NCBI GenBank assembly: GCA_963749975.1
Contig: CAVVOZ010000014.1
Span: forward strand, 961 to 64,960
DNA: 64,000 bases
Source of the DNA: an uncultured Candidatus Rokubacteria bacterium
Lineage (GTDB): Bacteria; Methylomirabilota; Methylomirabilia; Rokubacteriales; DASRDR01
Reading direction: 5' to 3'
The notes under the pieces are model-generated. The model saw only the letters and a list, made by a program, of their open reading frames with translations, was not told the origin of the DNA and did no database searches. Position 1 is the first letter of the stretch. Every line of letters begins with the position of its first letter. Both the position numbers and the translations under genes were made by a program. Shown piece by piece: positions 8,075 through 28,925 of the stretch.

Positions 8075-8812
8075 TCACTCGGTGAGCAGGCGGTAGCCGA
8101 CCCCCGGCTCGGTCCGGAGCAAGCGCGGGCGCGCCGGATCCGCTTCGAGCTTCCGGCGGAGGTTCGCCATGTACACCCGGAGGTAGTGCGTCTGCTCGAC
8201 CTGACCGGGCCCCCAGACTTCCTTGAGGAGCTGCCGGTGCGTCAGCACTTTCCCGGCGTGGCGGACCAGGACGGCCAAAAGGCGGTATTCGATGGGCGTG
8301 AGACGCACTTCGGCCTCGCCGAGCCAGACCCTTCGCCGCGCCAGGTCAACGCGGAGGTCCCCGGCTTCAAAGGTGGGCTCGCCGGGCTCGCGCCCCAGGG
8401 TGGCGTGCCGCAGGGCGACCCGCGCGCGCGCGAGGAGCTCGCCCACGGCGAAGGGCTTCGCCACGTAGTCGTCCGCGCCGGCGTCGAGCGCGGCTACCTT
8501 GTCCGCTTCCGCCCCCCGGGCGGAGAGGACGATGATCGGAACCGTCGTCCACTCGCGCAACCGGCGGATGACCTGGACGCCGTCCAGGTCGGGAAGCCCG
8601 AGGTCGAGGATGACGAGGTCGGGCTGCCGCGTCGCGGCCTGGAGCAGGCCGTCCTCCCCGGTCTCGGCCTCGACGATGCGATAGCCCTGGCTTGTCAGGG
8701 TGGGGCGGAGGAAGCGTCGGATCGGCGGCTCGTCCTCGATCACCAGCACCACCGGTCCGGGTGTCGGCGAAGGCGAGGGCTCGGGCTCGCGGCCAGTCTC
8801 GGTCTCAGCCAT
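8075..8812 (-). CDS. kdpE: KDP operon response regulator KdpE
   Basis: VLVIEDEPPIRRFL, LDLGLPD, THYLRVYMANLRRKLE, TEPGVGYR; ATG 8812 overlaps the kdpD end. Confidence 0.95.
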   Translation of the reverse strand: MAETETGREPEPSPSPTPGPVVLVIEDEPPIRRFLRPTLTSQGYRIVEAETGEDGLLQAATRQPDLVILDLGLPDLDGVQVIRRLREWTTVPIIVLSARGAEADKVAALDAGADDYVAKPFAVGELLARARVALRHATLGREPGEPTFEAGDLRVDLARRRVWLGEAEVRLTPIEYRLLAVLVRHAGKVLTHRQLLKEVWGPGQVEQTHYLRVYMANLRRKLEADPARPRLLRTEPGVGYRLLTE

Positions 8813-11510
8813 CCTCCGGCCGAACCTCCGGAGGCTCCGCCGCCAGTGGGAGGGAGAATCGGAACAGGGCTCCACCTCCCGCGCGGGTTTCCGCGGTGAT
8901 CCGCCCCCCGTGCGCCTCCACGACTCCGCGCGCGATTGCGAGACCGAGGCCTGCACCGCTCCGCGTCCCGGCTGCGTGGCCCCGGTAGAACTTCTCGAAG
9001 ACGAGCGCTTCTTCGCCGGGTGCGAACCCCGGCCCGCGATCCGCGACGGCCACGCGTACCTCGCGATCCTCGGCGGAGGCCGAGATCTCGATCGGGCTCC
9101 CCGCGGGCGTGTACTTGATGGCATTGTCCAGGATGTTGATGAGCACCTGCTCGATGAGCAGGGGATCGAGCGGCACCAGCGGCAGGTCGGGGGCCAGCTG
9201 GATGTCGATGCGACGATCGCCGAGGCGTTTCTCCAGGCGGGCCAGTGCGCTGCCGACCACCTCTTCCAGGGGTTCCCAGTCCTTGTGCACGCGGATGCCG
9301 CCGGACTCGAGACGCGTCATCTCGAGGAGGTTCTGCACCAGGCGGTTCAGGCGATCGGCCTCCTCCTGAATCGCCTGCGCGAGCTCGCGTCTCGCAGCCG
9401 CGTCGAGCTCAGCCCCCTGCTCCACGAGCGCGCTCGCCGATCCGGTGATGGTGGCCAGGGGCGTGCGGAGGTCGTGGGACACGGCGCTGAGCAGGGAATT
9501 CCGGAGCCGCTCCGTCTCGGACCGGATGCTGGCCTGCTGGGCCTCGTCCACCAGCGCCACGCGCTCGATGGCGAGGGCGGTCTGAGCGGCGAAGGTCTCG
9601 AGGAGGTGCAGCTGCTCCGGCGTCGCCGGGGTCGTCTCACCTGACGGCGGCTCGATTCCGAGCACTCCCACCGTGCCGCGCGCCGCCGTCAGCGGGAGGT
9701 ACAGCGCCCGGGCGCCCGGGAGGGTGGCGCTGCCGCGACCCGCCATTTGGCTGTGTTCCTGCACCCACCGGGCGACGCCGAGCTCGCTGGCGTCGCTGGA
9801 CCCCGCGGTGAGCTCGCCCGCACGGCGGACAAGCTGGCCGTCCGGGCCGGGGAGGAACACCGCCACCCGGCTCCCGAACACTTCCGCGATGTGGCGCGTC
9901 GCCGCCCGCAGCAGCTCGTCCAGGCCCTGCTCGCTGACCAGATCGCGGGTCATCGAGTAGAGAGCGGCGGTCCGGCGCTCACGCTGGCGCGAGGCCTCCG
10001 CCTGCGCCCGGACACGCGTGGTGAGCGTGCTGATCACGATCGCCACGACCAGCATGACCGCGAACGTGATGAAGTACTGGGTGTCGGATACCGCGAAGGT
10101 CAGGTAGGGCGCGACGAAGAAGAAGTCGAAGGCCGCCACGCTGAGGATCGACACCAGGATGGAAGGCCCCCGCCCGAGGCGCCAGGCCGCCAGCACGGTG
10201 CCCAGGAGGTACACCATGATGAGATTGGCGGGCGCGAAGCGGGGGAACATGAGCGAGGCCACCCCGGTGCAGACCGCCACGACCCCGGCGGCCTTGGCGT
10301 AGCCAGTCCAGTCTACGGGCGGCGCGGGGCGTTCCGTCGGAGGGGGCTGCGGCCCCTCGCGCTCGCCGGTGATGACATTGACGTCGATGTCGCCGCTCTG
10401 GCGCACGAGGTCGTTGACCACCGAGCCGAACAGGAGCTCTCGCCAGCGGGGGCGCGCAGGCTTCCCGAGGACGATCCGGGTGACGTTCCGGCGGCGCGCG
10501 TACGTGAGGACCTCCGCGGCGACGTCGTGCCCCGACAGCGTGGCCGTCTCCGCGCCGAGCTGCTCGGCCAGGCGGAGGGTCTGAACGATGCGGTCCCGGT
10601 CCGCGGCCGAGAGGCGAGCGGTGGCCGGCGTCTCCACGTTGACGACCACCCACTCGGCCCGCAATCCGGCGGCCATCCGCCGAGCGGCCCGCACGACGCG
10701 CGCGGCGAAGGGGCTCGGGCTGACGCAGACCAGGATGCGCTCGGCCACTGGCCACACGCCGGGGACGGCGTGATCGCGGCGGTAGGTCTCCATCTGGGCG
10801 TCCACGCGGGCCGCCGTGGTCCGGAGCGCCAGCTCCCGGAGTGCGATGAGATTGCCCTTCCGGAAGAACCGCCGGACGGCTTCACCGGCCTGCTCGGGAA
10901 CGTAGACCTTCCCGTCCCGCAGGCGCTGGATCAGATCGTCCGGAGGCAGGTCCACCAGCTCGACCTCGGCCGCCTCTTCCAGGATCGAGTCCGGGACCGT
11001 CTCCCGCGTGGGCACCTCGGTCACGCGCGCGACGACGTCGTTCAGGCTCTCGAGATGCTGGACGTTCAGGGTCGTGTAGACGTCGATCCCCGCGGCGAGA
11101 AGCTCCGTGACGTCCTGCCAGCGTTTGGCGTGGCGGGAGCCGGGGGCGTTCGTGTGCGCCAGCTCGTCGACGAGGATGAGGGCCGGGCGGCGGGCGAGGG
11201 CAGCATCGAGGTCGAACTCGCGGAGCGTCGTGCCACGGTACTCGACCGTGCGCGGCGGCAACCGCTCGAGTCCGGGAAGGAGCGCCTCCGTCTCGGCTCG
11301 GCCGTGCGTCTCGACCCAGCCGATGGCCACGTCGACGCCGGCGGCCTGCTGAGCGCGCGCGGCCTCCAGCATCGCGTAGGTCTTGCCGACGCCGGCGGCG
11401 GCCCCGAAGAAGACCTTGAGCTTTCCACGACTCTGGCGGGCCTCTTCCTCCCGGACTCGTGCCAGAAGCGCGTCGGGGTCCGGGCGAGGATCCAGGTGGG
11501 GGTCCTTCAC
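8805..11510 (-). CDS. kdpD: K+ sensor histidine kinase KdpD
   Basis: GAAAGVGKTYAML, DELAHTN, USP domain, DUF4118 TMs, GAF, SHDLRTPL, NAIKY, GLGL. Confidence 0.97.
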   Translation of the reverse strand: MKDPHLDPRPDPDALLARVREEEARQSRGKLKVFFGAAAGVGKTYAMLEAARAQQAAGVDVAIGWVETHGRAETEALLPGLERLPPRTVEYRGTTLREFDLDAALARRPALILVDELAHTNAPGSRHAKRWQDVTELLAAGIDVYTTLNVQHLESLNDVVARVTEVPTRETVPDSILEEAAEVELVDLPPDDLIQRLRDGKVYVPEQAGEAVRRFFRKGNLIALRELALRTTAARVDAQMETYRRDHAVPGVWPVAERILVCVSPSPFAARVVRAARRMAAGLRAEWVVVNVETPATARLSAADRDRIVQTLRLAEQLGAETATLSGHDVAAEVLTYARRRNVTRIVLGKPARPRWRELLFGSVVNDLVRQSGDIDVNVITGEREGPQPPPTERPAPPVDWTGYAKAAGVVAVCTGVASLMFPRFAPANLIMVYLLGTVLAAWRLGRGPSILVSILSVAAFDFFFVAPYLTFAVSDTQYFITFAVMLVVAIVISTLTTRVRAQAEASRQRERRTAALYSMTRDLVSEQGLDELLRAATRHIAEVFGSRVAVFLPGPDGQLVRRAGELTAGSSDASELGVARWVQEHSQMAGRGSATLPGARALYLPLTAARGTVGVLGIEPPSGETTPATPEQLHLLETFAAQTALAIERVALVDEAQQASIRSETERLRNSLLSAVSHDLRTPLATITGSASALVEQGAELDAAARRELAQAIQEEADRLNRLVQNLLEMTRLESGGIRVHKDWEPLEEVVGSALARLEKRLGDRRIDIQLAPDLPLVPLDPLLIEQVLINILDNAIKYTPAGSPIEISASAEDREVRVAVADRGPGFAPGEEALVFEKFYRGHAAGTRSGAGLGLAIARGVVEAHGGRITAETRAGGGALFRFSLPLAAEPPEVRPEDG

Positions 11511-13438
11511 GCCTGCAGTCTAGCCGACGAGGTCTCGCGCGGCTCACGTGTTGCGGACGCGACGGGTGGCCCGGGACTGTCGCCGTCGGTCCCCCGGGCT
11601 CTCACCGCAAGGTGATAGGGCACATCGATCACGATGACTCCCCGGCGGAACAGCATGGCGCCCTTGATCAGCAAGGCCGTCTGGTTGTGGAGGAGCTGCT
11701 GCCACCAGCGGACGGGCACGAACTCGGGCAGGACGATGGTGATCAGCGTGTCCGGAGCCTCCTGCTGGAGGCGGTCCACGTACTCGAGCAGCGGGCCGAT
11801 CACGGAGCGATAGGGTGATCGAAGGACCACGAGAGGCATGCTGCTCGCCCACTTGGCCCAGCGCTGCTCCAGCCTGCGCCTACTCTCGGCGTCGACCTCG
11901 ATGTAGACCGCTTGCGCGCTCGGGGACATGGCCCGGGCGTACCGGACCGCTCCCAGTACGCCGCGGTGGACGTCGCCGACCAGGACGAGGACGTGATGAG
12001 GTTCGGGAGGCAGCTCCTGTGATTCCAATCCCTCGAGGGACAGCTGACCCGCGACGTCGTCGTAGTGTCGACGGATGGTCACGAGGAGGAGCACCAGCAG
12101 CGGGATGAGCAGGATCACGAGCCAGGCACCATGCGTGAACTTGGTCGTGGCGATGATCAGCGCGACGATGCCGGTCGTCACCGCGCCCGCGCCGTTCAGC
12201 ACGGCCCGCATCGGCCAGCGAGGCCCTCGCTCACGAAACCAGAAGCGCACCATTCCGAGTTGGGAGAGCGTGAAGGACACGAAGACGCCGATGGCGTAGA
12301 GCGGGATCAGTGCATGTGTCTCCGCGCGGAACACGACGAGCAAGAGGGCGCTGAGGACGGCCAGGATGATGATGCCGTTCGAGAATGCCAGTCGATCCCC
12401 CCGGCTGGAGAACTGACGTGGCATGAACCGGTCGCGAGCCATGAACGACGAGAGCCGCGGGAAGTCCGCGAAGCTGGTGTTCGCCGCGATGACCAGGATC
12501 AGCGTGGTCAGGGCCTGTACGAGGTAGTAGAGGACGCTGCCTCCGCCGAACACACGGCGAGCCAGCTGTGAGTTGACGGTCTCATGGCCGGTCGGCGTCA
12601 GGCCGAAGCCGTTCGCGAGGAACGTGATCCCGACGAACAGTCCGATCAGCACGGCTCCGAGTAGCACGAGTACCTGCCGGGCGTTCTGGGCCTCCGGCGG
12701 TCGGAAGGCTGGTACCCCGTTCGAAACGGCCTCGATCCCCGTGAGAGCGACGCAACCGGACGCGAAGGCACGGAGGATCAGGAACAGCGTCAGCTCCTGG
12801 GCACCGGTCTCGGGGAGCATCCCTGGCGCGGCAAGCTCACTCCCCGAGCCCGCTCGCGCCCAGACGACGGCACCCCAGCCGATCATGAGGACGTAGGACG
12901 CGATGAACGCGTACGTCGGGATGGCGAACAGGCGCCCGGATTCGCGGACGCCGCGCAGGTTCGCGACCGTGATCCCGAGCACCCCGAGGACGCAGAGCTC
13001 GACCCGATACGGATAGAGGGTCGGTAGGGCGGACGTGACGGCGGCGATCCCCGCGGCGACGCTCACCGAGACGGTGAGCACGTAATCCGTCAGCAAGGCC
13101 GCACCCGCAACGAGACTGGGGTACGTGCCGAGGTTCTCCCGACTGACGATGTAGGCGCCGCCCGCGCTCGGGTAGGCGAGGATCGTCTGTCGGTAGGAGC
13201 TCACCACGATGGCTATGAGTACCGCGATGCCCAGCGAGATCGGCATCCCGACGTGGAGCGCCCCGGTGCCGGCCAGCGCGAGGATGAGGAGGATCTCCTC
13301 CGTGGCGTACGCACTCGACGAGAGAGCGTCCGAGGCGAACACGGCCAGGCCGGTCGCTCGCCCAAGCCGCTCGTGCATCTCGTGCGACGTGGGAATCGGT
13401 CGACCGAGAACGGCGCGTTTGAGGGTCTGCATCGACAC
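11507..13438 (-). CDS. APC-family KimA/YdaO-like K+ transporter
   Basis: SDALSSSAYATEE, GGAYIVS, TGIEAVSNGV, NTSFADFP, SPYRS, PEF..LHNQ. Confidence 0.9.
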   Translation of the reverse strand: MSMQTLKRAVLGRPIPTSHEMHERLGRATGLAVFASDALSSSAYATEEILLILALAGTGALHVGMPISLGIAVLIAIVVSSYRQTILAYPSAGGAYIVSRENLGTYPSLVAGAALLTDYVLTVSVSVAAGIAAVTSALPTLYPYRVELCVLGVLGITVANLRGVRESGRLFAIPTYAFIASYVLMIGWGAVVWARAGSGSELAAPGMLPETGAQELTLFLILRAFASGCVALTGIEAVSNGVPAFRPPEAQNARQVLVLLGAVLIGLFVGITFLANGFGLTPTGHETVNSQLARRVFGGGSVLYYLVQALTTLILVIAANTSFADFPRLSSFMARDRFMPRQFSSRGDRLAFSNGIIILAVLSALLLVVFRAETHALIPLYAIGVFVSFTLSQLGMVRFWFRERGPRWPMRAVLNGAGAVTTGIVALIIATTKFTHGAWLVILLIPLLVLLLVTIRRHYDDVAGQLSLEGLESQELPPEPHHVLVLVGDVHRGVLGAVRYARAMSPSAQAVYIEVDAESRRRLEQRWAKWASSMPLVVLRSPYRSVIGPLLEYVDRLQQEAPDTLITIVLPEFVPVRWWQQLLHNQTALLIKGAMLFRRGVIVIDVPYHLAVRARGTDGDSPGPPVASATREPRETSSARLQA

Positions 13439-14745: not shown

Positions 14746-15192
14746 GCGGCCGCGACGAAGACGTGGACGAGCGGGGGCTTGGGCTGAATCAGCCCACGCG
14801 GACGCCAAGCCCCCGAGGACGGCGGGCGTCACTGCCCATGCCGAATCTGGTTTGGCGTCCAGTCGTCATGGGTGCACCAACAACACCGGGGTTGGCTCCC
14901 GGCCTATCCCGGAGGCCCGAGGATCATCAGCCCGGGACAAACAGCGCGTCGGCGGATGGGGTACTACCCTCGGTCACGGCCGCGCGTCACTGCAGGGCAA
15001 GGTCGGCCACGAACGCAGAGCCGCGATCGGAAAGCTCGAGCGGCCTGCCGTCGTCGGTGCGCGCTTCGACCGGTGGCGGGGCGAAGAGCCGCGACATCCG
15101 AGCCGAACGCCTGCCGTGCTCGGGCATGGCGCCCAGTAGGGCGTCCGGGCAGCCTTGGCGTCGTCGGAGGTCAAGGCTGCCCGGACCGGTGA

Positions 15193-15366
15193 TCATCCCT
15201 GGTCGCTCTTCCTGATGAAGCGGTGTCCGTTCTCGCACGCCCGCCACTGTGGGCGGACACGCCTGGACGGGGCCCCGCAGCAGCTGCACGGCACACTCGG
15301 CTCGAATCCGTTTCCCGCCTTCGGCGCTGCAGCCTTCACTGCCCTCTCGGCCGGCTTCTTGCCCAT
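15193..15366 (-). CDS. 57-aa putative zinc-ribbon microprotein
   Basis: RBS GGAGGTG; MGKKPAERAVKAAAPKAGNGFEPSVPCSCCGAPSRRVRPQWRACENGHRFIRKSDQG (CxxC..CxxxH). Confidence 0.55.
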   Translation of the reverse strand: MGKKPAERAVKAAAPKAGNGFEPSVPCSCCGAPSRRVRPQWRACENGHRFIRKSDQG

Positions 15367-15508
15367 TGCTCACCTCCGGGTGCTGCGATCGACGCAGTTG
15401 CCTGCCATCCTGCGGTTCGTCGGTGTCCGCATTGCAGGCGGCACGCGCTCGCCCTGTAAGTTGTAGCGCGCGCGACGTCAAACTGGCGTCAATCCGGAGG
15501 AGGGAGGC

Positions 15509-15524
15509 GTAAAGAAGCGGTCAA
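15509..15524 (-). promoter_or_regulatory. Putative KdpE box
   Basis: TTGAC-cgcttc-TTTAC, two half-sites with 11-bp spacing as in the E. coli KdpE site. Confidence 0.5.
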
Positions 15525-18025
15525 GATGTGTCGAGAAGGTTCCGGGCGTCCTGCGCGGCGCCGCGTCTCTGACTCTCTTGCTCCAGCACCGTGCGGATGG
15601 CCGGCTGGGTGTCCATCGCGACCCGCAGGTCATCGCGATGCAGTCTGTAGAGTGTGCACGGGGTGACGGCTGTGACCGTCGCGTTGCGCAGCTGACGGGC
15701 GCTCAGCAGCGCCGTCTCGCCAAAGAACTCGCCAGCCTTCAGGGTGGCTAGGTCCCGCGATGCACCCTGCTCTTCGCGCGATATCCGGACCACGCCGTGG
15801 GCGATGAAGTACATGTGGTCGCCGGCCTCTCCCTGCTGGATGATCACCTGACCCTCGGGAACGAGCTGCAGCTGCATGCGGACCGCGATGTTGGCCAGAT
15901 CTGCCGGCGCAATGTCCTGAAACCAGGGCATCCGCTGTACCAGCGCGACCGGCTCCAGCTTGAGCTTCGAGACATCGTGCCCTTGCAGGCTGCACAGCTC
16001 GTCGGCGATGACACTGGTCAGGCGCTCCGCGACGGGCGGGGGAAGGGTCCCGTGCTCGGCCTGCTGCGCGATGGCGTCGGCCTCGGCGCCGAGCAGCACT
16101 CGCCGCGCGAGGCGCTCCTGCATGTCGGTGATCCAGTCCGGATAGCGCTCGGCAATCTGATCCAGGGTGTGCTGGGCCCTGTCGTATCGCTGCTGGTACC
16201 GGCGGCGCAGGCCGTCTACCACGGCCGCCGGGGTGGCGGCGATGCGGCCCAGGGTGTCGAGCATGTCGAGCACGCGCCGGCTGCTGTGGTGCCGGGCCGC
16301 CGTCACCTCGTAGTCCAGCGCGACGCGGTGCCAGTGCAGCCGCTCCTCCAGGGGCGCCAGCCCGCCGATGCGGTGAATCCAGCTCAGCATCTTGTCTTGC
16401 AGGTGCCGGAGGGTGGAGCGGCGGTGGTCCACTTCCTGGAACCGCCCGTAGCGGACCGCGTCGACCTGGAGCTCGAGCGCCTGGAGCAGGTGCCTGAGGG
16501 CGCGCTCGCTCAGGTGGCCGCGGTCGAAGAGGTCGACGTAGAAGGATTTCTCTTCGGCGAGGGCGCGCAGCGCGAGGAGGGCGAGCTGCCTGTCATCGTC
16601 GACCAGCTCCGTGGCGTAGAGGCTCTCGATTGCCGCCGTGATGCCGTCGAGCTGCTTCGTGTATTGACGCTCCAGGCGCATCGTGACGGGGGCCGAGCAC
16701 AGATCGCTGGCACGCAACTCCGGCAAGCGCTCCACGGCGCGACGCTTGGCGGCGAAATCTCCTTCCAGTCCCGCCAGGCGGTCGGCTATCAGCGGGCGGT
16801 CCAGCCCCAGCCGGCGCACCAGCGGCTCGATGGTGAGCCCCTGGGCGAGGAGCGTGAACAGGACCGCTCCCATCGTCAGGGTGACGAAGAGGTCACGGTG
16901 CTGGAATGGCGGCAGGCTCAAGACGATCGCGAGGGCAATGGCGCCCCGTAGCCCGCCCCAGAAGATGACCGCGCGGTATGCGCCCGGCATCGGCTCGGCG
17001 CCCGGCAGCCGCTGCACGAGCGGCATGAGCCCGTAGATCACGGCGCCGCGCGAGATCAGCAAGGCCACGACCACCCAGAACAACACGCCCAGGGTTGCCT
17101 GCAGGGGGGATGGCTCCACCCGCAGCCCCACCAGGAGAAAGATCAAGGCGTTGGCGACGAAGGCGACGTACTCCCAGAAGCTCTCAAGGTAATGGCGCAC
17201 GGCACGCGAGATCTTCATCCGGCCCCAGCCGCCGATGGTCAGGCCGGCCGCGATCGTGGCCATGACGCCGCTGACGTGCAGGACCTCCTCCGCAACCAGG
17301 TACGACACGTAGGCGAGCACGGTCGTCAGCGTGATCTCGATGAAGCGATCCTCCACCTTGCCGAGCGCGTAGCCGGTGAGTAGGCCCAGGAGCCAGCCCA
17401 CGGCGAGCCCACCCACGAACATGACCACGAAGTCGACGGCGCCTTGAAGGATCAGCCTGCCCGACACGGTGCCGGCGAGGACCACCCCGAGCAACAGCCG
17501 CGCGAGCACGATCGACGTGGCGTCGTTGAACAGGCTCTCCCCCTCCACCAGCACCCGGAGTCGCTGCGGCGCACCGAGCCGTCCGAAGAGAGCGACCACT
17601 GCGACCGGATCGGTGGCGCTGAGAATGGCGCCCAGTAGGAGGGCCGCTGCGATGGGAATCGGCGTCGTCAGCGCGACTACCAGTCCGATGACCAGGGTGG
17701 ACAGCAGCAGCCCGGGTCCGGCCAGGACGAGCACGGAGCCGAGGTTCTCGCGCAGCTGTCGAGCGTCGAGGTTGAACGCCGCTTCGAAGGTGAGCGTCGG
17801 CAGAAAGACGTAGAAGATCAGCGCCGAAGAGAGCTCGAGGTCCCGCGGCACTCCCAGCACGTGGGGATAGGCCCGCGCCACCGCGCCCATGGCGATGCCG
17901 ATCAGGACGAGCACGACAGTAAAGGGAAGCTTCAGATAGCGGGTCACCGCCCGCGTCACCGTGGCGATCAGGAGCAGGGTGACGACGGCGCCAACGACGG
18001 CAGCGGTGTAGGACGTCGAGTGCAT
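15521..18025 (-). CDS. CPA1 (NhaP/NHE) cation/H+ antiporter with C-terminal cyclic-nucleotide-binding domain
   Basis: ATDPVAV, EGESLFNDAT, GGLRGA, helical linker, then IIQQGEAGDHMYFI..GEFFGETALL..RNATV. Confidence 0.92.
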   Translation of the reverse strand: MHSTSYTAAVVGAVVTLLLIATVTRAVTRYLKLPFTVVLVLIGIAMGAVARAYPHVLGVPRDLELSSALIFYVFLPTLTFEAAFNLDARQLRENLGSVLVLAGPGLLLSTLVIGLVVALTTPIPIAAALLLGAILSATDPVAVVALFGRLGAPQRLRVLVEGESLFNDATSIVLARLLLGVVLAGTVSGRLILQGAVDFVVMFVGGLAVGWLLGLLTGYALGKVEDRFIEITLTTVLAYVSYLVAEEVLHVSGVMATIAAGLTIGGWGRMKISRAVRHYLESFWEYVAFVANALIFLLVGLRVEPSPLQATLGVLFWVVVALLISRGAVIYGLMPLVQRLPGAEPMPGAYRAVIFWGGLRGAIALAIVLSLPPFQHRDLFVTLTMGAVLFTLLAQGLTIEPLVRRLGLDRPLIADRLAGLEGDFAAKRRAVERLPELRASDLCSAPVTMRLERQYTKQLDGITAAIESLYATELVDDDRQLALLALRALAEEKSFYVDLFDRGHLSERALRHLLQALELQVDAVRYGRFQEVDHRRSTLRHLQDKMLSWIHRIGGLAPLEERLHWHRVALDYEVTAARHHSSRRVLDMLDTLGRIAATPAAVVDGLRRRYQQRYDRAQHTLDQIAERYPDWITDMQERLARRVLLGAEADAIAQQAEHGTLPPPVAERLTSVIADELCSLQGHDVSKLKLEPVALVQRMPWFQDIAPADLANIAVRMQLQLVPEGQVIIQQGEAGDHMYFIAHGVVRISREEQGASRDLATLKAGEFFGETALLSARQLRNATVTAVTPCTLYRLHRDDLRVAMDTQPAIRTVLEQESQRRGAAQDARNLLDTS

Positions 18026-18143
18026 GGTCGTGAATGGTTCAGAGTCGGGTGTGCGGAGTCACGGCAAGCTGCGCCCCGATGGGCGACCGATTGGCGGGGG
18101 CGAGGCAAAGGCCCATATTGGGCCCACGGACGACACGAATCCT

Positions 18144-19949
18144 CTACCGCAGCGCGAGATGCTCGACGATTGGTCCGAGCGCTAGCACCGGCAAGTAGCC
18201 GAGGGCGCCGACGACGAGGACGATGACGATCACGAGCCCGGCGAAGAGCACGCTGTCGGTCGGCAGCGTCCCGTCGGTCACCGGCTTGCGCCGCTGCTGG
18301 GCAAATTGGCCGGCGAGCGCGAGGGCCGGAATCCCGAGGCCGAAGCGGCCCAGGATCATCGCCAGCGCTGTGGTGATGTTGTAGAAAGGGGTGTTGGCGC
18401 TCAGGCCGGCGAAGTTCTGCCCATTGTTGGCCATCGAGGTCGTGTACGCCACCAGGATCTCACTCAACCCATGGGGACCGCTGTTCGTCGTGAGGCCCGC
18501 GAGCCCCGCACCGGTGGTCAGCGCCACCGCGGTGAGGGGCAGAACGACGAGGGGTGCGACCACGGCGTAAAGCGCGATGAGCTTCATCTCGCTCACGGTG
18601 AGCTGCTTGCCGAGGTACTCCGGGGTGCGGCCGATCATGAGGCCGGCGGCGAACACGCCGACCAGGGCGATCAGCACGAGGCTGTAGAGGCCCGTGCCAA
18701 GCCCGCCGAAGACCACCTCGCCGAGCAGCATGTTGACGATGGTCACCAGGCCTCCAATCGGCGTGTAGCTGTCGTGCATGGAATTGTAGGAGCCGGTGGC
18801 GCCGTTGGAGGTCGTGACGGCGGCCAGCACGGAGCCGCTGATCCCGAATCGAGTCTCCTTGCCCTCCATGTGTCCCCCGGCCTGCGCCATGTTCTCGGTC
18901 TGGTCGACACCCTGGCGGGCCAGGAAGTGACCGCGCTGCTCGGCGACGTGACACACGATGAGACCGCCGACGAACAAGGTCAGCATGACCCAGAAGAGCA
19001 CCCAGCCCTGCCGGGGCCGCTCGGTCATACGGCCGAAGGTGTAGGTGAGGGAGGCGGGCAGCACCGCGATGGCGAGCATCTCGAGGAGATTCGTTAGGGG
19101 AGTCGGGTTCTCGAACGGGTGAGCCCCGTTCACGTTGAAGAAGCCGCCGCCGTTCGTGCCGAGATTCTTGATCGGCTCGAGCGTGGCGACCGGGCCCATC
19201 GCGATGAGCTGCTCGCCCAGAATGACCTTCTTCGTGGTTGGCTGCCCCTTCTCGTCGAGGACCGGCTTTGCCTCCGCGTTCAGGACGGGCTCGCCGTACT
19301 CCACCGGCTGCACGACGGGGACCTTCACATAGGGCGCGAAATTCAGGGGCACACCCTGCCACACGAGGATCGGAGCGGTCACCAGCGAGAGCGGCAGCAG
19401 GACCCACAGCAACCCGCGCGTCACGTCGACCCAGAAGTTTCCGAGGAGGCTCGTGTGCTGGCGAGCCAGGCCCCGGATGAACGCGATGCCCACCGCAAGA
19501 CCGGCCGCACCGGCCAGGAAGTTCTGCGACGCGAGCCCGAACACCTGGCTGAAGTAGCTCATCGTGGTTTCGCCACCGTACGCCTGCCAGGTCGTGGTGG
19601 TCGCGAAGCTGACCGCGGTGTTCATGGCGAGGTCGGGGGCGACGGGGCCCGGCTGGTACGCGGGGTCGAAGGTGTGAAACACCGGCTGCAACCGCAGCAC
19701 TGCGTAGAGCAGCAGTGTCCCGCCGAAGCCGAACAGGAGAAAGCACCCGGCATAGCGCTTCCAGTCCATCTCCGCCGCCGCATCGACGCCGGCGAGGCGG
19801 TAGATGGCCCGTTCCAGCGGTCGCAGCACCGGGTCGAGCCAGGTCCGCTCGCCGCTGAAGACGCAGGCGAGATAGGCGCCGACCGGCTTGACCAGTAGCG
19901 CGACGATCAGCAGGAACACGCCGTACTGGACGGCGCTCGCCGGGCTCAT
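18144..19949 (-). CDS. kdpA: Second, divergent K+-transporting ATPase subunit A (KdpA2)
   Basis: [38 protein letters not shown]; filter motifs altered. Confidence 0.93.
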   Translation of the reverse strand: MSPASAVQYGVFLLIVALLVKPVGAYLACVFSGERTWLDPVLRPLERAIYRLAGVDAAAEMDWKRYAGCFLLFGFGGTLLLYAVLRLQPVFHTFDPAYQPGPVAPDLAMNTAVSFATTTTWQAYGGETTMSYFSQVFGLASQNFLAGAAGLAVGIAFIRGLARQHTSLLGNFWVDVTRGLLWVLLPLSLVTAPILVWQGVPLNFAPYVKVPVVQPVEYGEPVLNAEAKPVLDEKGQPTTKKVILGEQLIAMGPVATLEPIKNLGTNGGGFFNVNGAHPFENPTPLTNLLEMLAIAVLPASLTYTFGRMTERPRQGWVLFWVMLTLFVGGLIVCHVAEQRGHFLARQGVDQTENMAQAGGHMEGKETRFGISGSVLAAVTTSNGATGSYNSMHDSYTPIGGLVTIVNMLLGEVVFGGLGTGLYSLVLIALVGVFAAGLMIGRTPEYLGKQLTVSEMKLIALYAVVAPLVVLPLTAVALTTGAGLAGLTTNSGPHGLSEILVAYTTSMANNGQNFAGLSANTPFYNITTALAMILGRFGLGIPALALAGQFAQQRRKPVTDGTLPTDSVLFAGLVIVIVLVVGALGYLPVLALGPIVEHLALR

Positions 19950-19972
19950 GGCCTGTCCGCTGGACGATCCGT

Positions 19973-20956
19973 CTACGAGGCTCGGGACTTGATGGTCGCC
20001 GTCCGTCGCGCGGGCCCGGGACCTCCCGATCGGGGGCCCGGCTGACGGCGGCGATCAGCCCACGCCGACCAGTCCACGTCCAGGGCTGCCGCCACGTAGA
20101 CCGTCGAAGTGGTGCCCGTCACGGCGCCCACCAGAATCACGAAGCCGAAGTTCTCCAGAGACTCACCGCCGAACAAGAACAGCATCCCCGCCGACATGAC
20201 TATGGTCGCGACGGTCAGCACCGTTCGAGATAGGGTCTGATTGACCGCAAGATTCACCTGCTCGGCGAAGGTGACCCTCGTGGGTAGTTTACCGGCCCGG
20301 ATCTCCCGCAGCCGGTCGTACATCACGATCCGGTCATTCACGGAGAACCCGATCACTGTCAGCAGGGCGGCCAGGACCGTCAGGGAGAACTCTCGGTTCG
20401 TCAGGGAGAGCGCCCCCAGGCAGATGAGCACGTCGTGCCCCAAGCTCACGATCGTCACCACCCCGCCTCTGAGGTCGAAGCGCATCCAAACGTAGAGGAG
20501 GATCCCACCGAGCGCGGCGAGCACCGCGTAGACGGCTTGCCTGCGTAGCTCCGATCCGATCTGGGGCCCGACCGACTCCACACGCCGAATCTCCGGCGCG
20601 GTTGCCCCGTCGGAGCCCAGCGCGTTGACTATCCGGCGACTGAGCTCGGCGGTGTCGGTCGAGCTGAGGTGAGTGCGGATGAGGACGTCTCGCGGATCGT
20701 CGAAGACCTGGATGATGCTTTCGCCGAGCCCTACCGCGGTCAGGCGCGAGCGGATCGCCGCGACCGGAGCGGGCTGGGCCAGTCGCAGCTCCACCAGCGT
20801 CCCGCCGGTGAAGTCGATGTCGTATTGCAGTCCTCCTTTGACGATCATTGAGCCGACCCCGAGCAGCATGACGGCGATGGACAAGGCATAGGCCCAGCGC
20901 CGCTTTCCGATGAAGTCGTAGGCTGGGTTCGTGAATATCGTCAGCACGCCGCTCAC
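19973..20956 (-). CDS. secF: Protein translocase subunit SecF homolog (no secD in window)
   Basis: YDFIGKRR, IDFTGG, VESVGPQIGSEL, HDV, FSVNDRIVMYDRLRE, QTLSRT. Confidence 0.9.
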   Translation of the reverse strand: MSGVLTIFTNPAYDFIGKRRWAYALSIAVMLLGVGSMIVKGGLQYDIDFTGGTLVELRLAQPAPVAAIRSRLTAVGLGESIIQVFDDPRDVLIRTHLSSTDTAELSRRIVNALGSDGATAPEIRRVESVGPQIGSELRRQAVYAVLAALGGILLYVWMRFDLRGGVVTIVSLGHDVLICLGALSLTNREFSLTVLAALLTVIGFSVNDRIVMYDRLREIRAGKLPTRVTFAEQVNLAVNQTLSRTVLTVATIVMSAGMLFLFGGESLENFGFVILVGAVTGTTSTVYVAAALDVDWSAWADRRRQPGPRSGGPGPARRTATIKSRAS

Positions 20957-21142
20957 CTCCGGCTCAAGAGCAGGTCAAGAAGTGAACCTGTGTGTCCCGG
21001 CGATAGGGTTTGCCTACCGACGACTTCTGGTTCCCCGGGCTCGCTTGCCGGCATGCCTCGTGCGCGCGCGTCGTCACCCCGGACTGCCGACCCGCGCGGC
21101 ATGGAATGGGACAAGGGCGTCGCGCTTCGGGTCGGGGTTAGC

Positions 21143-21982
21143 TCACGCCCCAACAAACACGGGCACCGGGCTCTCCTTGAGGACCGCCCGCGTCACCGAG
21201 GTGAAGAAAAGATCGCGGACGGGATGATATCCCTGGGCGCCCATCACGATCAGACGGGGCCGCTGGCGACGGACCTCATCCAGGATGAGTGCGGCCGGCG
21301 CGGCCTTGGACGCCAGCGGCTGGAGAGCGACGCGCAGGCCGTGAGCGGTGAGGAACTTGCCCGCCGGGTGGAGCCGCGCCTCGGCCCGAGCCAGGTCATG
21401 GTCGATGGCCAGAAGGCAGACGGGCTCGTCGCCAGCCAGACCGAGAAGCGCGAACGTCTGGAGCGTGCGCGCGACTTCCCGACCGCTCCCGTATGCGACC
21501 AGCACACCGCTGCCGGCGGCCGGCTCGCGGGGTACGACCACCACCGGGCGCGGGCTTTCGCGGAGCACCTTGCTGAGGGTCGCATCGGGCTGGTCCTGCG
21601 TCTCGAACTGGAAGTGGGTCTCCCGGCCAAGCACAACCACATCACATCCGAATGCTTCGGAGACGATCTGGTCGTGCGGTGCGCCGATGTCTTCCACCAC
21701 GGAGCACTGCACCCGCGCCGTGTTGCAGCGCTCGTGGAACGCGGTGAGGAGCTGGAGGACCTGCCGGTGCGCGTCCGCCAACCGGATTTCGTCGCGCTGG
21801 CGTTTGAACGCCGTGCCCCCGAATGACACGGGCTCGGGGCTCGTGATGGACGGCTTGTCGAGGATGCCGAGCCCGATCAGCTCGGCGTCGAAGCGACGGG
21901 CCCACTCGATGGCGAGCGTAGCCGCCGCCGCGCCGTGAGCGGAGCCGTCCATGGCGACCAGTGCCCGGCGGATCATCGTCAT
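21143..21982 (-). CDS. Tandem universal stress protein
   Basis: [42 protein letters not shown]; ATGA overlap with kdpC. Confidence 0.92.
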
Positions 21983-22554
21983 CCCCGCGCGGCGGCGTCG
22001 AGCGCGAGATTCAGCCGCAGCACGTTGACTCGAGGCTCCCCGAGGATCCCCAGCTGCCGGCCCTCGATGTGCTGCTCCACCAAGCGGCGCACCTGCGCCG
22101 GATCCATCCCGCGCGCCTTGGCCACCCGCGGCACCTGATAGAGCGCGGCGGCCGGGCTAATGTCCGGGTCGAGCCCGCTCCCCGACGCGGTCACCAGGTC
22201 GACGGGGATCAGCGTCGTGTTGCCGGGATCTGCCTCGCGCAGGGCGTCGATCCGCGCCTTCGCGGCGGCATGGAACGCCGGATTGATGGGGCCGAGGTTG
22301 GAGCCGGACGAGGCACCCGCATTGTAGGCGAATGGCGCCGTGGCGGAGAGGCGACCCCAGAAGTACTTCGGATCGTCGAAGGGTTGCCCGATGAGCGCGG
22401 AACCCACCGGCTTCCCATCGCGCAGGATCAGGCTGCCGTTGGCTTGCGCGGGGAAGATGATCTTGGCGACGCCGGTCACGACGAGCGGATATACCACGCC
22501 CGTGACCAGGCTGAGCAGGACCAGGACGATGATGGCGGGCTTGAGCTGATCCAT
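21979..22554 (-). CDS. kdpC: K+-transporting ATPase subunit C
   Basis: [46 protein letters not shown]. Confidence 0.97.
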
Positions 22555-22580
22555 GTTCGAGGGCTCCTCCGTCTGATCCG

Positions 22581-24653
22581 CTACGCCCAGCCGAGGGCGA
22601 CCAGGATCAGGTCGATGAGCTTGATGCCGAGGAAGGGCAGGATGATCCCGCCGACGCCGTAGACCCAGAGGAACCGGCGGAGCACCGCGGACGCCCCCAT
22701 GGGTCGGTAGCGCACGCCCCGGAGCGCCAGGGGGACGAGGGCGATGATGATCAGCGCGTTGAAGATGACAGCGGAGAGGATCGCGCTCTGGGGCGTGGCC
22801 AGCCCCATGACGTTGAGGGTGTTCAGCACGGGATAGGTGGTCGCGAACGCCGCCGGGATGATCGCGAAGTACTTCGCGACGTCATTGGCGATGCTGAACG
22901 TCGTGAGCGCCCCCCGGGTCATCAGCATCTGCTTGCCGGTCTCCACGACCTCGATGAGCTTGGTGGGGTTCGAGTCGAGGTCGACCATGTTCCCGGCTTC
23001 CTTGGCGGCCTGGGTGCCCGAGTTCATGGCCACCGCCACGTCGGCCTGGGCGAGGGCGGGCGCGTCATTCGTGCCATCGCCCGTCATGGCGACGAGCCGG
23101 CCCCCGGCCTGGAGCTCGCGGATCAGCTTGAGCTTGGCCTCCGGGGTCGCCTGCGCCAGAAAGTCGTCGACACCAGCCTCGGCCGCGATCGCGGCCGCGG
23201 TGAGCGGATTGTCGCCGGTGATCATGATGGTCTTGATGCCCATGCGGCGCAGCTCACCGAAACGCTCCCGGATCCCGCCCTTGACGATGTCCTTGAGCTC
23301 GACCACCCCGAGCACCCGGGGGCCGTCGGCCACGACGAGGGGCGTGGCGCCCCGCTTCGCGACGCCGTCGACGGCGGTACGCACCGGCGCGGGGAACTCC
23401 CCGCCGAGTGCGCGGACGTGTGCTTCGATGGCGTCGGCCGCACCCTTGCGTACCTGGCGGCCGTTGAGGTTGACGCCGCTCATCCGCGTCTGGGCGGTGA
23501 AGGGCACGAAGGTCGCGCCCAGCCCCTGGACGTCTCGCTCCCGGATCCCGTACTTCTCCTTGGCCAGAACGACGATGCTGCGCCCCTCCGGCGTCTCGTC
23601 GGCCAGCGACGCAAGCTGGGCCGTGTCAGCGAGGTCGCGCTCGGCCACTCCCGAGGTGGGGACGAACGCCGTGGCCTGTCGATTCCCGAGGGTGATCGTT
23701 CCCGTCTTGTCGAGCAGCAGCACGTCCACGTCACCTGCCGCCTCGACCGCGCGGCCGGACATGGCAATGACGTTGGCCTGCGCCATCCGGTCCATACCCG
23801 CGATCCCGATGGCCGACAGTAACCCGCCGATGGTCGTCGGGATGAGGCACACCAGGAGGGCGACCAAGACGGTCACGGTCACGGGCGTCCCCTGACCCGC
23901 GACCGTCACGCTGTAGATGGAATACGGCAGCAGGGTGGCGGTGGCGAGCAGGAAGATGATGGTGAACCCCGCCAGCAGGATGTTGAGCGCGATCTCGTTC
24001 GGTGTCTTCTGGCGCTTCGCGCCCTCCACCATGGCGATCATGCGATCGAGGAAGGCCTCGCCGGGGTTCGCGCTGATCCGCACCATCAACCAGTCTGACA
24101 GGACCCGCGTGCCGCCCGTGACCGCGCTCCGGTCGCCGCCGCTCTCCCGGATCACGGGCGCGCTCTCGCCGGTGATCGCGCTCTCGTCGACCGACGCGAC
24201 GCCTTCGATGACCTCGCCGTCGCCGGGGATCACGTCGCCGGTCTCCACCAGAACGACGTCCCCCTTCCGCAGGGCGCTCGCCGTGACGGCCACGACGCCG
24301 GCTCCCCGCTCTGGCTTCAGGAGCTTCTTCGCCTGGACGTCGCGGCGAGTTCGGCGCAGAGCCTCCGCCTGGGCCTTCCCCCGTCCCTCGGCCATCGCCT
24401 CGGCGAAGTTGGCGAACAGGACCGTGAACCAGAGCCACACGCTCACCCAGAAGATGAAGCCGGCGGGGGCCTCACCCTTTCCGACGAGGGCCTGGATGAA
24501 CAGCCCCGAGGTCAGGATGCTCCCGACGTAGACCACGAACATCACGGGATTGCGGACCTGGACTCCGGGGGTGAGCTTCCGGAAGGAATCGACCACGGCC
24601 CTCCAGACGATGGGACCCTCGAAGAGGGGGCGCGACTTCGCGTACGTTGGCAT
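22581..24653 (-). CDS. kdpB: K+-transporting ATPase subunit B
   Basis: [36 protein letters not shown]. Confidence 0.98.
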
Positions 24654-24667
24654 GTTGATGCCTCTCT

Positions 24668-26473
24668 TTACTTGACGGACGTCATCATGAGGTGCTCGAC
24701 GATCGGTCCCAGCGCGAGCGCGGGGATGAACGTCAGCGCCCCGACGAGCACGACCACGCCGATGAGGAGCGCGGCGAAGAGCGGCGTGTGAGTGGGCAAG
24801 GTACCTGGGCCGGCCGGCACGACCTTCTTGCGCGCCAGCGAGCCCGCGATCGCGAGCGTCGGGATGGCTAGCCAGTACCGCGCGAAAAGCATCGCGAACC
24901 CGAGCGCGGTGTTGTAGAAGGGCGTGTTCGCGCCGAGCCCGGCGAAGGCGCTGCCGTTGTTGTTGCTGGCCGAGGAGAACGCATAGAGGACCTCGCTGAA
25001 GCCATGGGCGCCGGGGTTGAAGATCGTCGCCGTCCCGCCCGGGCTCACGACGGCGATCGCGGTGCAGATCGTGACGAGGGCCGGCGGGATCAGGATGACA
25101 AGCGCCGCCATCTTCATCTCATAGGCCTCGATCTTCTTGCCGAGGTACTCCGGCGTCCGCCCGACCATCAGCCCAGCCACGAAGACCGCGATGATGGCGA
25201 AGACCAGCATGCCGTAGAGGCCGGAGCCGACTCCGCCGTAGACGACCTCGCCGAGCTGCATGAGCCACATGGGCACGAGCCCGCCGAGCGGGGTGAAGGA
25301 ATCGTGCATGGAGTTCACGGAGCCATTGGAGGCCGAGGTCGTCGCCGTGGCCCACAGGGCGGAGTTGGCGATCCCGTACCGTACCTCCTTGCCCTCCATG
25401 TTCCCGCCCGCCTGGAGGGCGCTCGCCTGGTGATCGACCCCGAGCCACGCGAGCGTGTTGCCGCGCTGCTCGGCCACCACGCACACGGCGAGCAGGACGA
25501 CGAAGATGACCGTCATCGCCGCCAGGACCGCCCAGCCCTGGCGGGTGTCCCCGACCATGGCGCCGAACGTGTAGCAGAGGGCGGCCGAGATCACGAGGAT
25601 TGCGAGCACCTCGAAGAAGTTGGACAGTGGCGTCGCGTTCTCGAACGGGTGCGCCGAGTTCACGTTGAAGAATCCGCCGCCATTGGTGCCGAGCTGCTTG
25701 ATGGCGACCTGGGACGCCGCGGGCCCAACGGCCAGGACCTGCTCGCTCAGGGTCGCCTTCGTCATCTTCGGCTGACCCTTCTCGTCGAGGACCGGCTTGC
25801 CGTCCTTGTCGGTCTCCGGCACGTCGTACTGAGTGGGCTGGACGACCGCGACCTTCGCGTATGCGCCGAAGGTCTGGACGACGCCCTGAGAGACGAGGAC
25901 GAGCGCGAGCACGAACGAGAGGGGCAGCATGATGTAGAGCGTCGTCCGCGTGAGATCGACCCAGAAGTTGCCGATCGTCTCGGCGGAGCGCCGCGCGAGC
26001 CCGCGGACGAAGGCCGCCAGCGTGGCCATCCCAGCGGCGGCCGAGACGAAGTTCTGCACGGTCAGCCCCAGCATCTGGGTCAGGTAGCTCATGGTCGTCT
26101 CGCCACCGTAGCCCTGCCAGTTCGTGTTGGTGCCGAAGCTGACAGCGGTGTTGAACGACGAATCGGGCGACACGGCACCGAGTCCCTCCGGGTTCAGGGG
26201 CAGGACGCCCTGGAGCCGCTGGAGCGCGTAGACGACCAGGATGCCCACGAAGTTGAACAGGAGCATAGCGATCGCATACGCCTTCCAGCCTTGCTCGGCG
26301 TCGGGCCGGATGCCGGCGACCCGGTAGATCAATCGCTCGAGCCATCCGAGCGCTCGGTCGAGGCCGATCCGCTGGCCCTGGTAGACGCGGGCCATGTAGG
26401 CGCCGAGTGGCTTCGCTAACAGGAGGAGGACGACGACATAGAGCACGAGCTGGAAGACGCCGCTCCCGGTCAC
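24668..26473 (-). CDS. kdpA: K+-transporting ATPase subunit A (canonical)
   Basis: TNTNWQ, TNGGG, SNGSV, NNGSA filter motifs. Confidence 0.98.
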
Positions 26474-26562
26474 GAGAACACCTCCGGCTTCAGCATCGCC
26501 ACGACGAGGTAGACGAGCAGGCCGATCGACACGAGCCCGCCAATCACGTAGAGAATGGGCAT
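26470..26562 (-). CDS. kdpF: K+-transporting ATPase subunit F
   Basis: [30 protein letters not shown]; RBS GGAGG; GTGA overlap with kdpA. Confidence 0.93.
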
Positions 26563-26574
26563 GTCAGCCTCCCG

Positions 26575-26658
26575 CTATAGGCGGTCGCAGAGCACAACCA
26601 GGCCCCAGGACAGGGCCAGAAATCCGAGAGTGAGCCCGATGTAGAGAACGTCTTGCAC
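26575..26658 (-). CDS. 27-aa single-TM peptide upstream of kdpF (KdpG/KdpZ-like)
   Basis: GTG start with AGGAGG 6 nt upstream; MQDVLYIGLTLGFLALSWGLVVLCDRL. Confidence 0.75.
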   Translation of the reverse strand: MQDVLYIGLTLGFLALSWGLVVLCDRL

Positions 26659-26895
26659 GTCATGCCTCCTTCGGCACGGGCGTGAATGCACGCGGCAGGC
26701 AGGTGGAGTGACCGGTTCGAGAACCGCAAGGGCGGTGCCACTCGGTCGACCGATCAGCAACGGTAGCCATGTCGAGCGCATAGCAACGTGAACGCCCCGG
26801 GGTGGGCCGCTTCTGTGGGGCGCTGGCACCCCAGACCAGGACGGGCGTTGCGACAGTCGTCATGTGAATACACCGGAGGGTCATCGTAGCCCGGC

Positions 26896-27909: not shown

Positions 27910-27953
27910 GGCGCTTCTCTCCTTGCCGTCGTCAAACTGGTGCGCTGCCCGAA

Positions 27954-28727: not shown

Positions 28728-28784
28728 GACGAGAACCATAGCGAGGGAAGGCGTCAAGGCGCGCTAGAGACTGGCCCCGGAAGG

Positions 28785-28802
28785 ATCAAGGATCCGTATA
28801 AA
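28785..28802 (-). promoter_or_regulatory. Putative KdpE box upstream of the PDE-porin-kdpFABC unit
   Basis: TTTATACGGATCCTTGAT; TATAC/TTGAT half-sites 11 bp apart. Confidence 0.55.
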
Positions 28803-28925
28803 GGGGGCGTTCAGTCAGGCGGGAGCGGGGAGGGGAGCGGGTCGCCGGAGGCCGGAGGCGGAGCGCGCGTTGATGCAGGCCCCCTGGCGGCTCCGGCCCG
28901 GGGGGCCCCGGGGTGAAAGTGACGG

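Follow-up and report, generated by a model that had tools for sequence, protein, structure and literature searches.

A second KdpA with a rewritten selectivity filter represents a conserved subfamily and may serve as an alternative subunit of the Kdp pump

A variant KdpA in a Rokubacteria kdp cluster

We examined a stretch of 64,000 nucleotides (the window) from an uncultured Candidatus Rokubacteria bacterium (assembly GCA_963749975.1, contig CAVVOZ010000014.1), which carries a kdp cluster with two genes for KdpA, the ion-selecting subunit of the ATP-driven Kdp pump. The original prediction held that the second of these genes, kdpA2, encodes a KdpA with three of its four filter motifs rewritten, and the translated open reading frame (ORF) reads exactly so (Table 1). 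The kdpA2 ORF has an ATG start and no stop within its 601 codons. Its product matches PF03814 at 686.2 bits (cut-off, 22.6) over residues 11 to 598, which places it in the family, and it scores 630.8 against TIGR00680 (cut-off, 387.7), above the equivalog threshold. In a pairwise alignment, KdpA1 and KdpA2 are 54% identical across 580 residues.

Genome-wide searches (37 contigs, 91% complete) returned two matches for KdpA and one each for KdpB and KdpC, which bears out the claim of a single kdpB and a single kdpC; the next-best P-type ATPase of the genome is just 31% to 33% identical to KdpB. In the sense of transcription, the cluster begins with a 27-codon hydrophobic ORF, followed by kdpF, kdpA1, kdpB, kdpC, and a tandem universal-stress-protein (usp) gene. 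After a gap of 186 bp come a paralogue of secF, ending 23 bp upstream of kdpA2, then kdpA2 itself, 118 bp of spacing, a gene for a CPA1 antiporter, unassigned ORFs, an APC-type permease gene, kdpD, and a kdpE-like gene. The kdpA2 gene shares one common cluster with kdpFA1BC, and it stands outside the kdpF-kdpA-kdpB-kdpC arrangement, flanked by the SecF paralogue and the antiporter.

Table 1. Features of the kdp cluster, with positions in the window
Feature	Position	Strand	Evidence
kdpA2, variant KdpA, 601 amino acids, intact	18144..19949	-	ORF and translation, Pfam/NCBIfam KdpA, AlphaFold2 model, Foldseek
KdpA2 filter loop 1, TTTTWQ (E. coli 111-116 TNTNWQ; KdpA1 TNTNWQ)	19584..19601	-	
KdpA2 filter loop 2, TNGGG, unchanged (KdpA1 TNGGG)	19143..19157	-	
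KdpA2 filter loop 3, ATGSY (E. coli 343-347 SCGAV; KdpA1 SNGSV)	18786..18800	-	
KdpA2 filter loop 4, NNGQN (E. coli 466-470 NNGSA; KdpA1 NNGSA)	18414..18428	-	
kdpA1, canonical filter	24668..26473	-	Pfam, translation
kdpB, sole copy in genome; canonical M4 LIPTTIGG, D583, K586, N624	22581..24653	-	
kdpC, sole copy in genome	21979..22554	-	Pfam
kdpF, 30 amino acids, overlapping the kdpA1 start; no such ORF at kdpA2	26470..26562	-	
Tandem universal-stress-protein gene; 4-bp overlap with the kdpC stop	21143..21982	-	Pfam Usp, two stretches
SecF paralogue, 327 amino acids	19973..20956	-	Pfam SecD_SecF_C, TIGR00966
kdpD, sensor kinase	8805..11510	-	
kdpE-like regulator, last gene of the cluster	8075..8752	-	

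The ion-selecting loops are changed and the pump-route residues are kept

Throughout, residues are numbered as in E. coli KdpA, with the loops aligned on their conserved glycine. KdpA2 lacks the canonical signature TNTNWQ / TNGGG / S[CN]G[AS]V / NNGSA, from which it differs in three of the four loops. In the variant sequences, N112 is replaced by T and S343 by A on the inner side of the filter, N114 and C/N344 are both replaced by T, and at the outer mouth V347 gives way to Y or T, S469 to Q, and A470 to N, S, T, or A. Comparing 186 variant with 97 canonical sequences, we found 25 clade-specific positions, three of which (112, 114, and 469) are circular because they had been used to define the two groups. 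Many of the 25 lie in or beside the pore loops (112, 114, 222, 227, 340-343, 347, and 469), and others fall in helices D1M2 (140-148) and D3M2 (376, 382).

The remainder of the filter is conserved. Glycines G232, G345, and G468, together with W115 and Q116, are present in 186 of 186 variant sequences. The residues of the vestibule and tunnel are retained almost as strictly (E370 in 180/186, R400 in 186/186, and R493 in 184/186), and all three are present in the window KdpA2. An AlphaFold2 model built from a 59-row alignment (predicted local distance difference test score, 86.4; predicted template-modelling score [pTM], 0.87) was matched by Foldseek to the KdpA chains 5mrw_A and 7nnp_A with a template-modelling score (TM) of 0.96 and a root-mean-square deviation of 2.2 to 2.3, so that the predicted structure has the SKT fold with its four pore-loop repeats.

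The sections of the E. coli KdpFABC study that we draw on (PMC12629597) give these positions a functional meaning. There, the KdpA filter governs ion selection and KdpB is promiscuous, the S3 site of the filter sets both affinity and selectivity, and the entrance vestibule of the tunnel to KdpB has E370 and R493 on its sides, with E370 lying along the ion path. The same sections describe the KdpA substitutions Q116R and G232D, which alter the apparent affinity with transport remaining coupled, and report coupled transport of Rb+ and NH4+ by G232D. In the part of a second study used here, a constriction is located at F232 of KdpB (PMC8385062). Read against this literature, the conservation pattern of the variant appears to be one in which residues of the pump route are kept and ion-selecting residues are changed.

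Variant KdpA proteins form a conserved clade

The original prediction had named a lack of conservation among homologues as the sign of decay. Instead, variant loop 1 is present in 119 of the 120 closest database homologues (66% to 99% identical to KdpA2), and the 120 best homologues are far nearer to KdpA2 than KdpA1 is. A scan of species-representative genomes yielded 228 confirmed relatives, from which 80 loci were kept for analysis. Together with the window, these loci yielded 93 full-length KdpA ORFs, 74 variant and 19 canonical, a sample that the search patterns skew towards the variant. The variant consensus is TT[T/S/A]TWQ / TNGGG / [A/S]TGS[Y/T/...] / NNGQx, with Q at 469 in 72 and T at 344 in 71 of the 74, and the canonical consensus is TNTNWQ / TNGGG / S[C/N]G[A/S][V/I] / NNGSA.

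Two of the checks that had been proposed for this gene, a KdpA phylogeny and an estimate of the ratio of nonsynonymous to synonymous substitution rates (dN/dS), point the same way. In a FastTree phylogeny of the 93 ORFs, one branch separates variant from canonical sequences with a support of 100, which is local support only. In pairwise comparisons of the window gene with three relatives, dN/dS is 0.19 to 0.20 for KdpA2 and 0.14 to 0.26 for KdpA1, rough values given synonymous divergences (dS) of 0.4 to 0.9.

We also compared the signature with a KdpA library clustered at 50% identity (109 full-length representatives). N112 occurs in 89 and S469 in 95 of them; Q469 occurs in only two, both of the variant clade. 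The complete variant signature is likewise limited to two representatives (P0123 and P0124), and a further two (P0174 and P0224) have variant loops 1 to 3 with a garbled loop 4. Judged by these comparisons, the filter differences between KdpA1 and KdpA2 exceed chance. Since so few representatives at 50% identity carry the signature, the variant clade is tight (at least about 53% to 55% identity across phyla), and the canonical KdpA family is much more diverse.

Carriers of the variant come from at least 10 phyla, with labels that include Methylomirabilota, Acidobacteriota, Chloroflexota, Armatimonadota, Verrucomicrobiota, Planctomycetota, Pseudomonadota, and Melainabacteria, among others. Cultured Chloroflexota (Ktedonobacter, Ktedonosporobacter) and the Pseudomonadota Dyella and Xanthobacter are among them; the labels Nitrosotalea and Saccharimonadales are possible binning errors. 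KdpA2 is 77% to 84% identical to proteins of Thermoanaerobaculia, Limnocylindria, and other bins, which suggests that kdpA2 has spread horizontally. Altogether, as far as sequence comparison can tell, the variant signature is that of a conserved subfamily under purifying selection and is not a product of decay.

Because the variant passes the equivalog cut-off of TIGR00680, annotation pipelines name it plain KdpA, and the subfamily is invisible in current annotation. A full-text literature search, with subscription journals mostly outside its reach, found no description of it, and the portion of a paper on KdpD diversity that we drew on (PMC11018627) does not mention it. The subfamily thus seems to be undescribed in print.

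Variant genes are linked to KdpC and KdpB and lack a KdpF

We counted locus arrangements over the 73 variant loci outside the window. The order kdpB-kdpC-kdpA2 on a single strand was found at 11 loci, with kdpD directly next in 5 of these, and a kdpC copy followed by kdpA2, without kdpB in the 3.5 kb upstream, was found at another 11. The order kdpA2-kdpC occurs at 3 loci, kdpB lies elsewhere within 10 kb at 11, and 14 loci have no kdp gene but short flanks; the remaining, solitary loci are considered below. In a Melainabacteria metagenome-assembled genome (L063), the genes of a kdpB-kdpC-kdpA(variant) operon overlap or nearly abut, and the operon contains no canonical kdpA. At two further loci (L056 and L022), KdpA2-KdpC has a divergent KdpB next to it, with 47% and 58% identity to the window KdpB, respectively.

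The KdpC copies beside KdpA2 are dedicated paralogues in the KdpC tree. The Chloroflexota copies group together (support, 99) as the sister clade of that lineage's operon KdpC, and the gamma- and deltaproteobacterial copies form a separate clade (support, 100). In addition, at least 16 clusters of KdpC-KdpA fusion proteins have a variant loop-1 motif (TTTTWQ in 15 and TGTTWQ in 1), compared with 5 canonical fusion clusters. The fusions are 771 to 823 amino acids long, their N-terminal ends are 49% to 61% identical to one another, and some are encoded on contigs of 49 to 171 kb.

A canonical KdpB was found elsewhere in 15 of 15 checked genomes in which the variant gene lies away from kdpAB, the first five of which also have a canonical KdpA and KdpC. 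In the phylum of the window, KdpB is present in 8 of the 10 genomes with the variant motif pattern, in 7 at E ≤ 1e-120 and in one (G024) as frameshifted pieces, and it reaches that threshold in 82 of all 251 genomes of the phylum. Overall, KdpB is present in 23 of the 25 variant-bearing genomes that were checked. Upstream of canonical kdpA, a KdpF-like ORF (consensus ending ...LLRPEKF) was found for 17 of 19 genes, and upstream of variant kdpA for none of the 71 with at least 200 bp of upstream sequence. Given this count and the single kdpB and kdpC, the variant brings no KdpF of its own, nor, in this genome, a KdpB or KdpC.

Two of these loci show further peculiarities in KdpB. The M4 motif of the divergent KdpB reads ATSTLTRS in L056 (7107-9182), with P264 lost and Arg at 268, and SIPITTRA in L022 (5850-7913). 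N624 is replaced by G or T, and D583, K586, and F232 are kept. The positive charge thus built into the canonical site is reminiscent of L228R, an uncoupling KdpB mutant described in the portion of PMC8385062 used here. At the locus of the closest named relative (L012, and likewise G127:C148), two canonical KdpB genes flank KdpA2, one of them within kdpA1-B-C; the second comes after an APC permease gene and runs divergently from KdpA2, with a gene for a CBS-BON protein between this second KdpB and KdpA2.

KdpA2 as a proposed alternative A subunit of the Kdp pump

The position of kdpA2 after kdpC, the dedicated KdpC copies and fusions, the kdpB-kdpC-kdpA(variant) operon, the co-occurrence with KdpB, the lack of an own kdpF, and the kept vestibule residues lead us to favour, with somewhat better than even confidence, the reading that KdpA2 would be a second, exchangeable isoform of the ion-selecting Kdp subunit, with a re-tuned filter. 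The original prediction had offered three options, an exchangeable subunit, a KdpB-independent channel, and a sensor. Comparative genomics favours the first, and the other two emerge from it with less support. An alternative A subunit would also be the most economical reading, in which KdpA2 borrows the B, C, and F subunits here and other lineages provide it with a dedicated C or with both a B and a C.

According to this proposal, KdpA2 would fold as KdpA and keep the filter backbone of the K+-channel type, and its charged vestibule residues would guide the ion to the tunnel that runs towards KdpB. With no KdpB, KdpC, or KdpF of its own in this genome, it would take the place of KdpA1 in a complex with those whose genes lie two to four places upstream. 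Since the KdpA filter selects the ion and KdpB is promiscuous, exchange of the A subunit would create a second population of pumps in which K+ binding is re-tuned or a K+-like monovalent cation is admitted. We infer such assembly, transport, and change of affinity or ion from the comparisons above. A stronger version, in which the variant filter changes the transported ion itself and lets Kdp pump a different monovalent cation at the expense of ATP, is one that we entertain only as a tentative minority view. Because many of the record titles indicate bacteria of bog, palsa, or other soils, ammonium would be the most attractive candidate, with Rb+ or Cs+ as alternatives.

Several observations weigh against the proposal of an alternative A subunit. 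We know of no precedent for the assembly of two A subunits with one B and one C subunit encoded in an operon. The distribution in the phylum of the window is patchy, with the variant motif pattern in 10 of 251 genomes (a control pattern, in 0/251). KdpB was not found in two of the 10 motif-bearing genomes, G159 (88% complete) and G204 (78% complete). One genome in the counts for this phylum, G043, is unpublished; it has neither the motif nor KdpB, and none of the claims depends on it. Six same-genus genomes have one KdpA match each, which scores as canonical and is without the variant motif, and two truncated remnants of KdpA2, both true gaps in the match, were recovered as residues 411-596 in G014 (L106, G014:C3 890-1442) and residues 5-321 in G009 (L105, G009:C5 8577-9470). 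The gene is therefore dispensable in this lineage. Of the 73 variant loci, 23 are solitary, with flanks of 5 kb or more on either side that contain no kdp gene, and together with the 11 KdpC-only loci they make a KdpB-free role conceivable. Lastly, the genomes behind the co-occurrence of KdpB and the variant are related and hence not independent, so that no p-value is attached to it.

The remnants sit between kdpC and kdpD, an interval that is a variable spot in same-genus genomes. Frameshifted KdpA pieces in G024, G009, and G018 were considered as further cases of decay and rejected. We read them as assembly errors because kdpA1, kdpB, kdpC, and kdpD are hit alike.

Competing explanations

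The solitary and KdpC-only loci would also be accommodated if KdpA2, alone or with a KdpC-type cap, functioned without KdpB, as an SKT-type channel or secondary transporter comparable to TrkH and KtrB. The lack of an own kdpF at variant genes fits this idea, as does the descent of KdpA from channel-like SKT proteins, which is echoed in Foldseek matches of KdpA2 to KtrB, TrkH, and HKT (TM, 0.5 to 0.7). However, KdpB is encoded elsewhere in nearly all of the variant-bearing genomes checked, and some operons combine KdpB and KdpC with the variant A subunit only. E370, which lies on the ion path into the tunnel in the consulted sections of PMC12629597, is kept in nearly every variant, and KdpA1 and KdpA2 hardly differ in the D3M2 region, by which KdpA is closed on the cytoplasmic side. 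Moreover, the conserved neighbours include no recurrent partner of the RCK type. Clustering of the neighbours of solitary loci revealed no universal partner, only housekeeping or unrelated genes (PEPCK, CoaE, HtrA-like, NadB-like, peptidases, BBP2 porins, DUF2254, and two-component genes). On balance, we consider a channel improbable. Still less probable is that KdpA2 does not transport at all and acts as a sensor or regulator, reporting external K+ to KdpD or titrating KdpB and KdpC. The kdpD gene does follow directly at 5 of the 11 kdpB-kdpC-kdpA2 loci, and kdpD and kdpE are the last genes of the window cluster, but a place before kdpD is merely the end of a kdpABC operon. A sensor would not need the whole pore, the filter glycines, and the vestibule charges, all of which are conserved, and neither fusion to nor covariation with KdpD was seen; the fusions observed are with KdpC.

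A partnership of KdpA2 with the adjacent SecF paralogue, as a module linked to the proton motive force, has very little in its favour. The idea draws on the 23-bp spacing and on two orthologues of the paralogue (80% to 81% identity), the only ones among 40 relatives, both of which are located within the kdp cluster, next to KdpA2 or a remnant of it. Their gene order is kdpA1-B-C-A2-secF'-...-usp-kdpD in G024 and kdpC-A2 remnant-usp-secF'-...-kdpD in G014, so that order varies among the three relatives. Of the 80 loci outside this genome, only L084 and L071 have a neighbour of the SecF type. The one in L084, from Xanthobacter, was rejected as support, being an ordinary SecDF of 848 amino acids next to a KdpA2 with an in-frame TGA, and the one in L071 is a partial match 5 kb away. 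A SecF-type neighbour is therefore not a feature of the subfamily, and the partnership finds no support. The paralogue itself is a genuine member of the SecF family, scores 268.7 against TIGR00966 (cut-off, 160), has no SecD adjacent, and is 52% identical to the housekeeping SecF encoded next to secD on contig C20. It retains the invariant SecF residues, which makes pairing with SecD the simplest assumption. Because its orthologues are few, its gene order varies, and such a neighbour is no general feature of the subfamily, this gene is, from its comparative record, a lineage-specific passenger of the variable kdpC-kdpD stretch. Finally, the least probable of all explanations is that KdpA2 is a neutral or decaying duplicate without a distinct role. 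Its loss or reduction to a remnant in some same-genus genomes would suit such a fate, but the window copy is intact with a dN/dS of about 0.2, and carriers of the conserved signature form one clade and span at least 10 phyla.

Expression and further features of the cluster

Contigs from a single metatranscriptomic library are identical to the window at 18721-18918, within kdpA2, and at 20872-21048, 21270-21452, 22306-22754, 23521-23726, and 26443-26593; the matches fall in kdpA2, usp, kdpC, kdpB, and kdpF. Such contigs give neither strand nor level and may reflect carry-over of DNA into the RNA library, and they are a weak hint that the kdp cluster, kdpA2 included, is transcribed in nature. 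Scans of positions 15000 to 29000 returned no promoter-like sites and 5 terminator-like sites, against 4.3 expected, and both were uninformative.

The 27-codon hydrophobic ORF (26575-26658, minus strand) lies directly upstream of kdpF, and similar small ORFs precede canonical kdpA in L024 and L089. Directly downstream of kdpA2, a single protein (15521-18025, minus strand) combines a CPA1-type cation/proton antiporter with a C-terminal cyclic-nucleotide-binding domain; a CPA1 gene follows KdpA2 in L014 as well. Further along, a permease of the APC superfamily (AA_permease_2; 643 amino acids; 11507-13438, minus strand) overlaps the start of kdpD by 4 bp, and relatives of it occur near kdp genes in L012, L038, L048, L062, and L063. 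This permease could be a candidate K+ symporter of the KimA kind. Both KdpA paralogues contain an insertion of about 35 residues (residues about 207 to 250) that is absent in E. coli KdpA and is modelled as a beta-hairpin ahead of pore loop 2.

Implications and comparison with known systems

A widespread second KdpA with a rewritten filter would amount to a natural selectivity experiment on the Kdp pump, since a channel-like subunit picks the ion and the ATPase subunit moves whatever is supplied. The variant singles out residues 112, 114, 343, 344, 347, 469, and 470 for such a comparison. It could account for the ability of soil bacteria to manage at very low K+ or in the presence of competing cations, and if the ion itself were switched, soil bacteria would change the substrate of a pump by swapping one subunit.

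The closest known system is E. coli KdpA (PDB 5MRW, 6HRA, and 7NNP), which belongs to the same Pfam and NCBIfam family, is about 45% identical to KdpA2, and matches its model with a TM of 0.96. The two proteins have in common the four pore loops, the three glycines, W115, Q116, E370, R400, and R493. KdpA2 differs by N112T, N114T, S343A, C/N344T, V347Y, S469Q, and A470N and by about 18 further clade-specific positions. The genes also differ in context: unlike E. coli kdpA, the variant has no kdpF in front and is usually a second copy, located after kdpC, beside its own KdpC, or alone. The natural variant is likewise distinct from the laboratory filter mutants Q116R and G232D, in that it keeps both Q116 and G232 and instead changes positions 112 and 343 on the S4 side, position 114, and positions 347, 469, and 470 at the outer mouth.

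Among the other SKT proteins, HKT, Ktr, and Trk share the superfamily fold with KdpA2. In HKT proteins, a Gly-to-Ser replacement in the first loop switches selectivity from K+ to Na+. KdpA2, in contrast to these proteins, has no filter glycine replaced, and it belongs to the ATPase-coupled KdpA branch of the superfamily.

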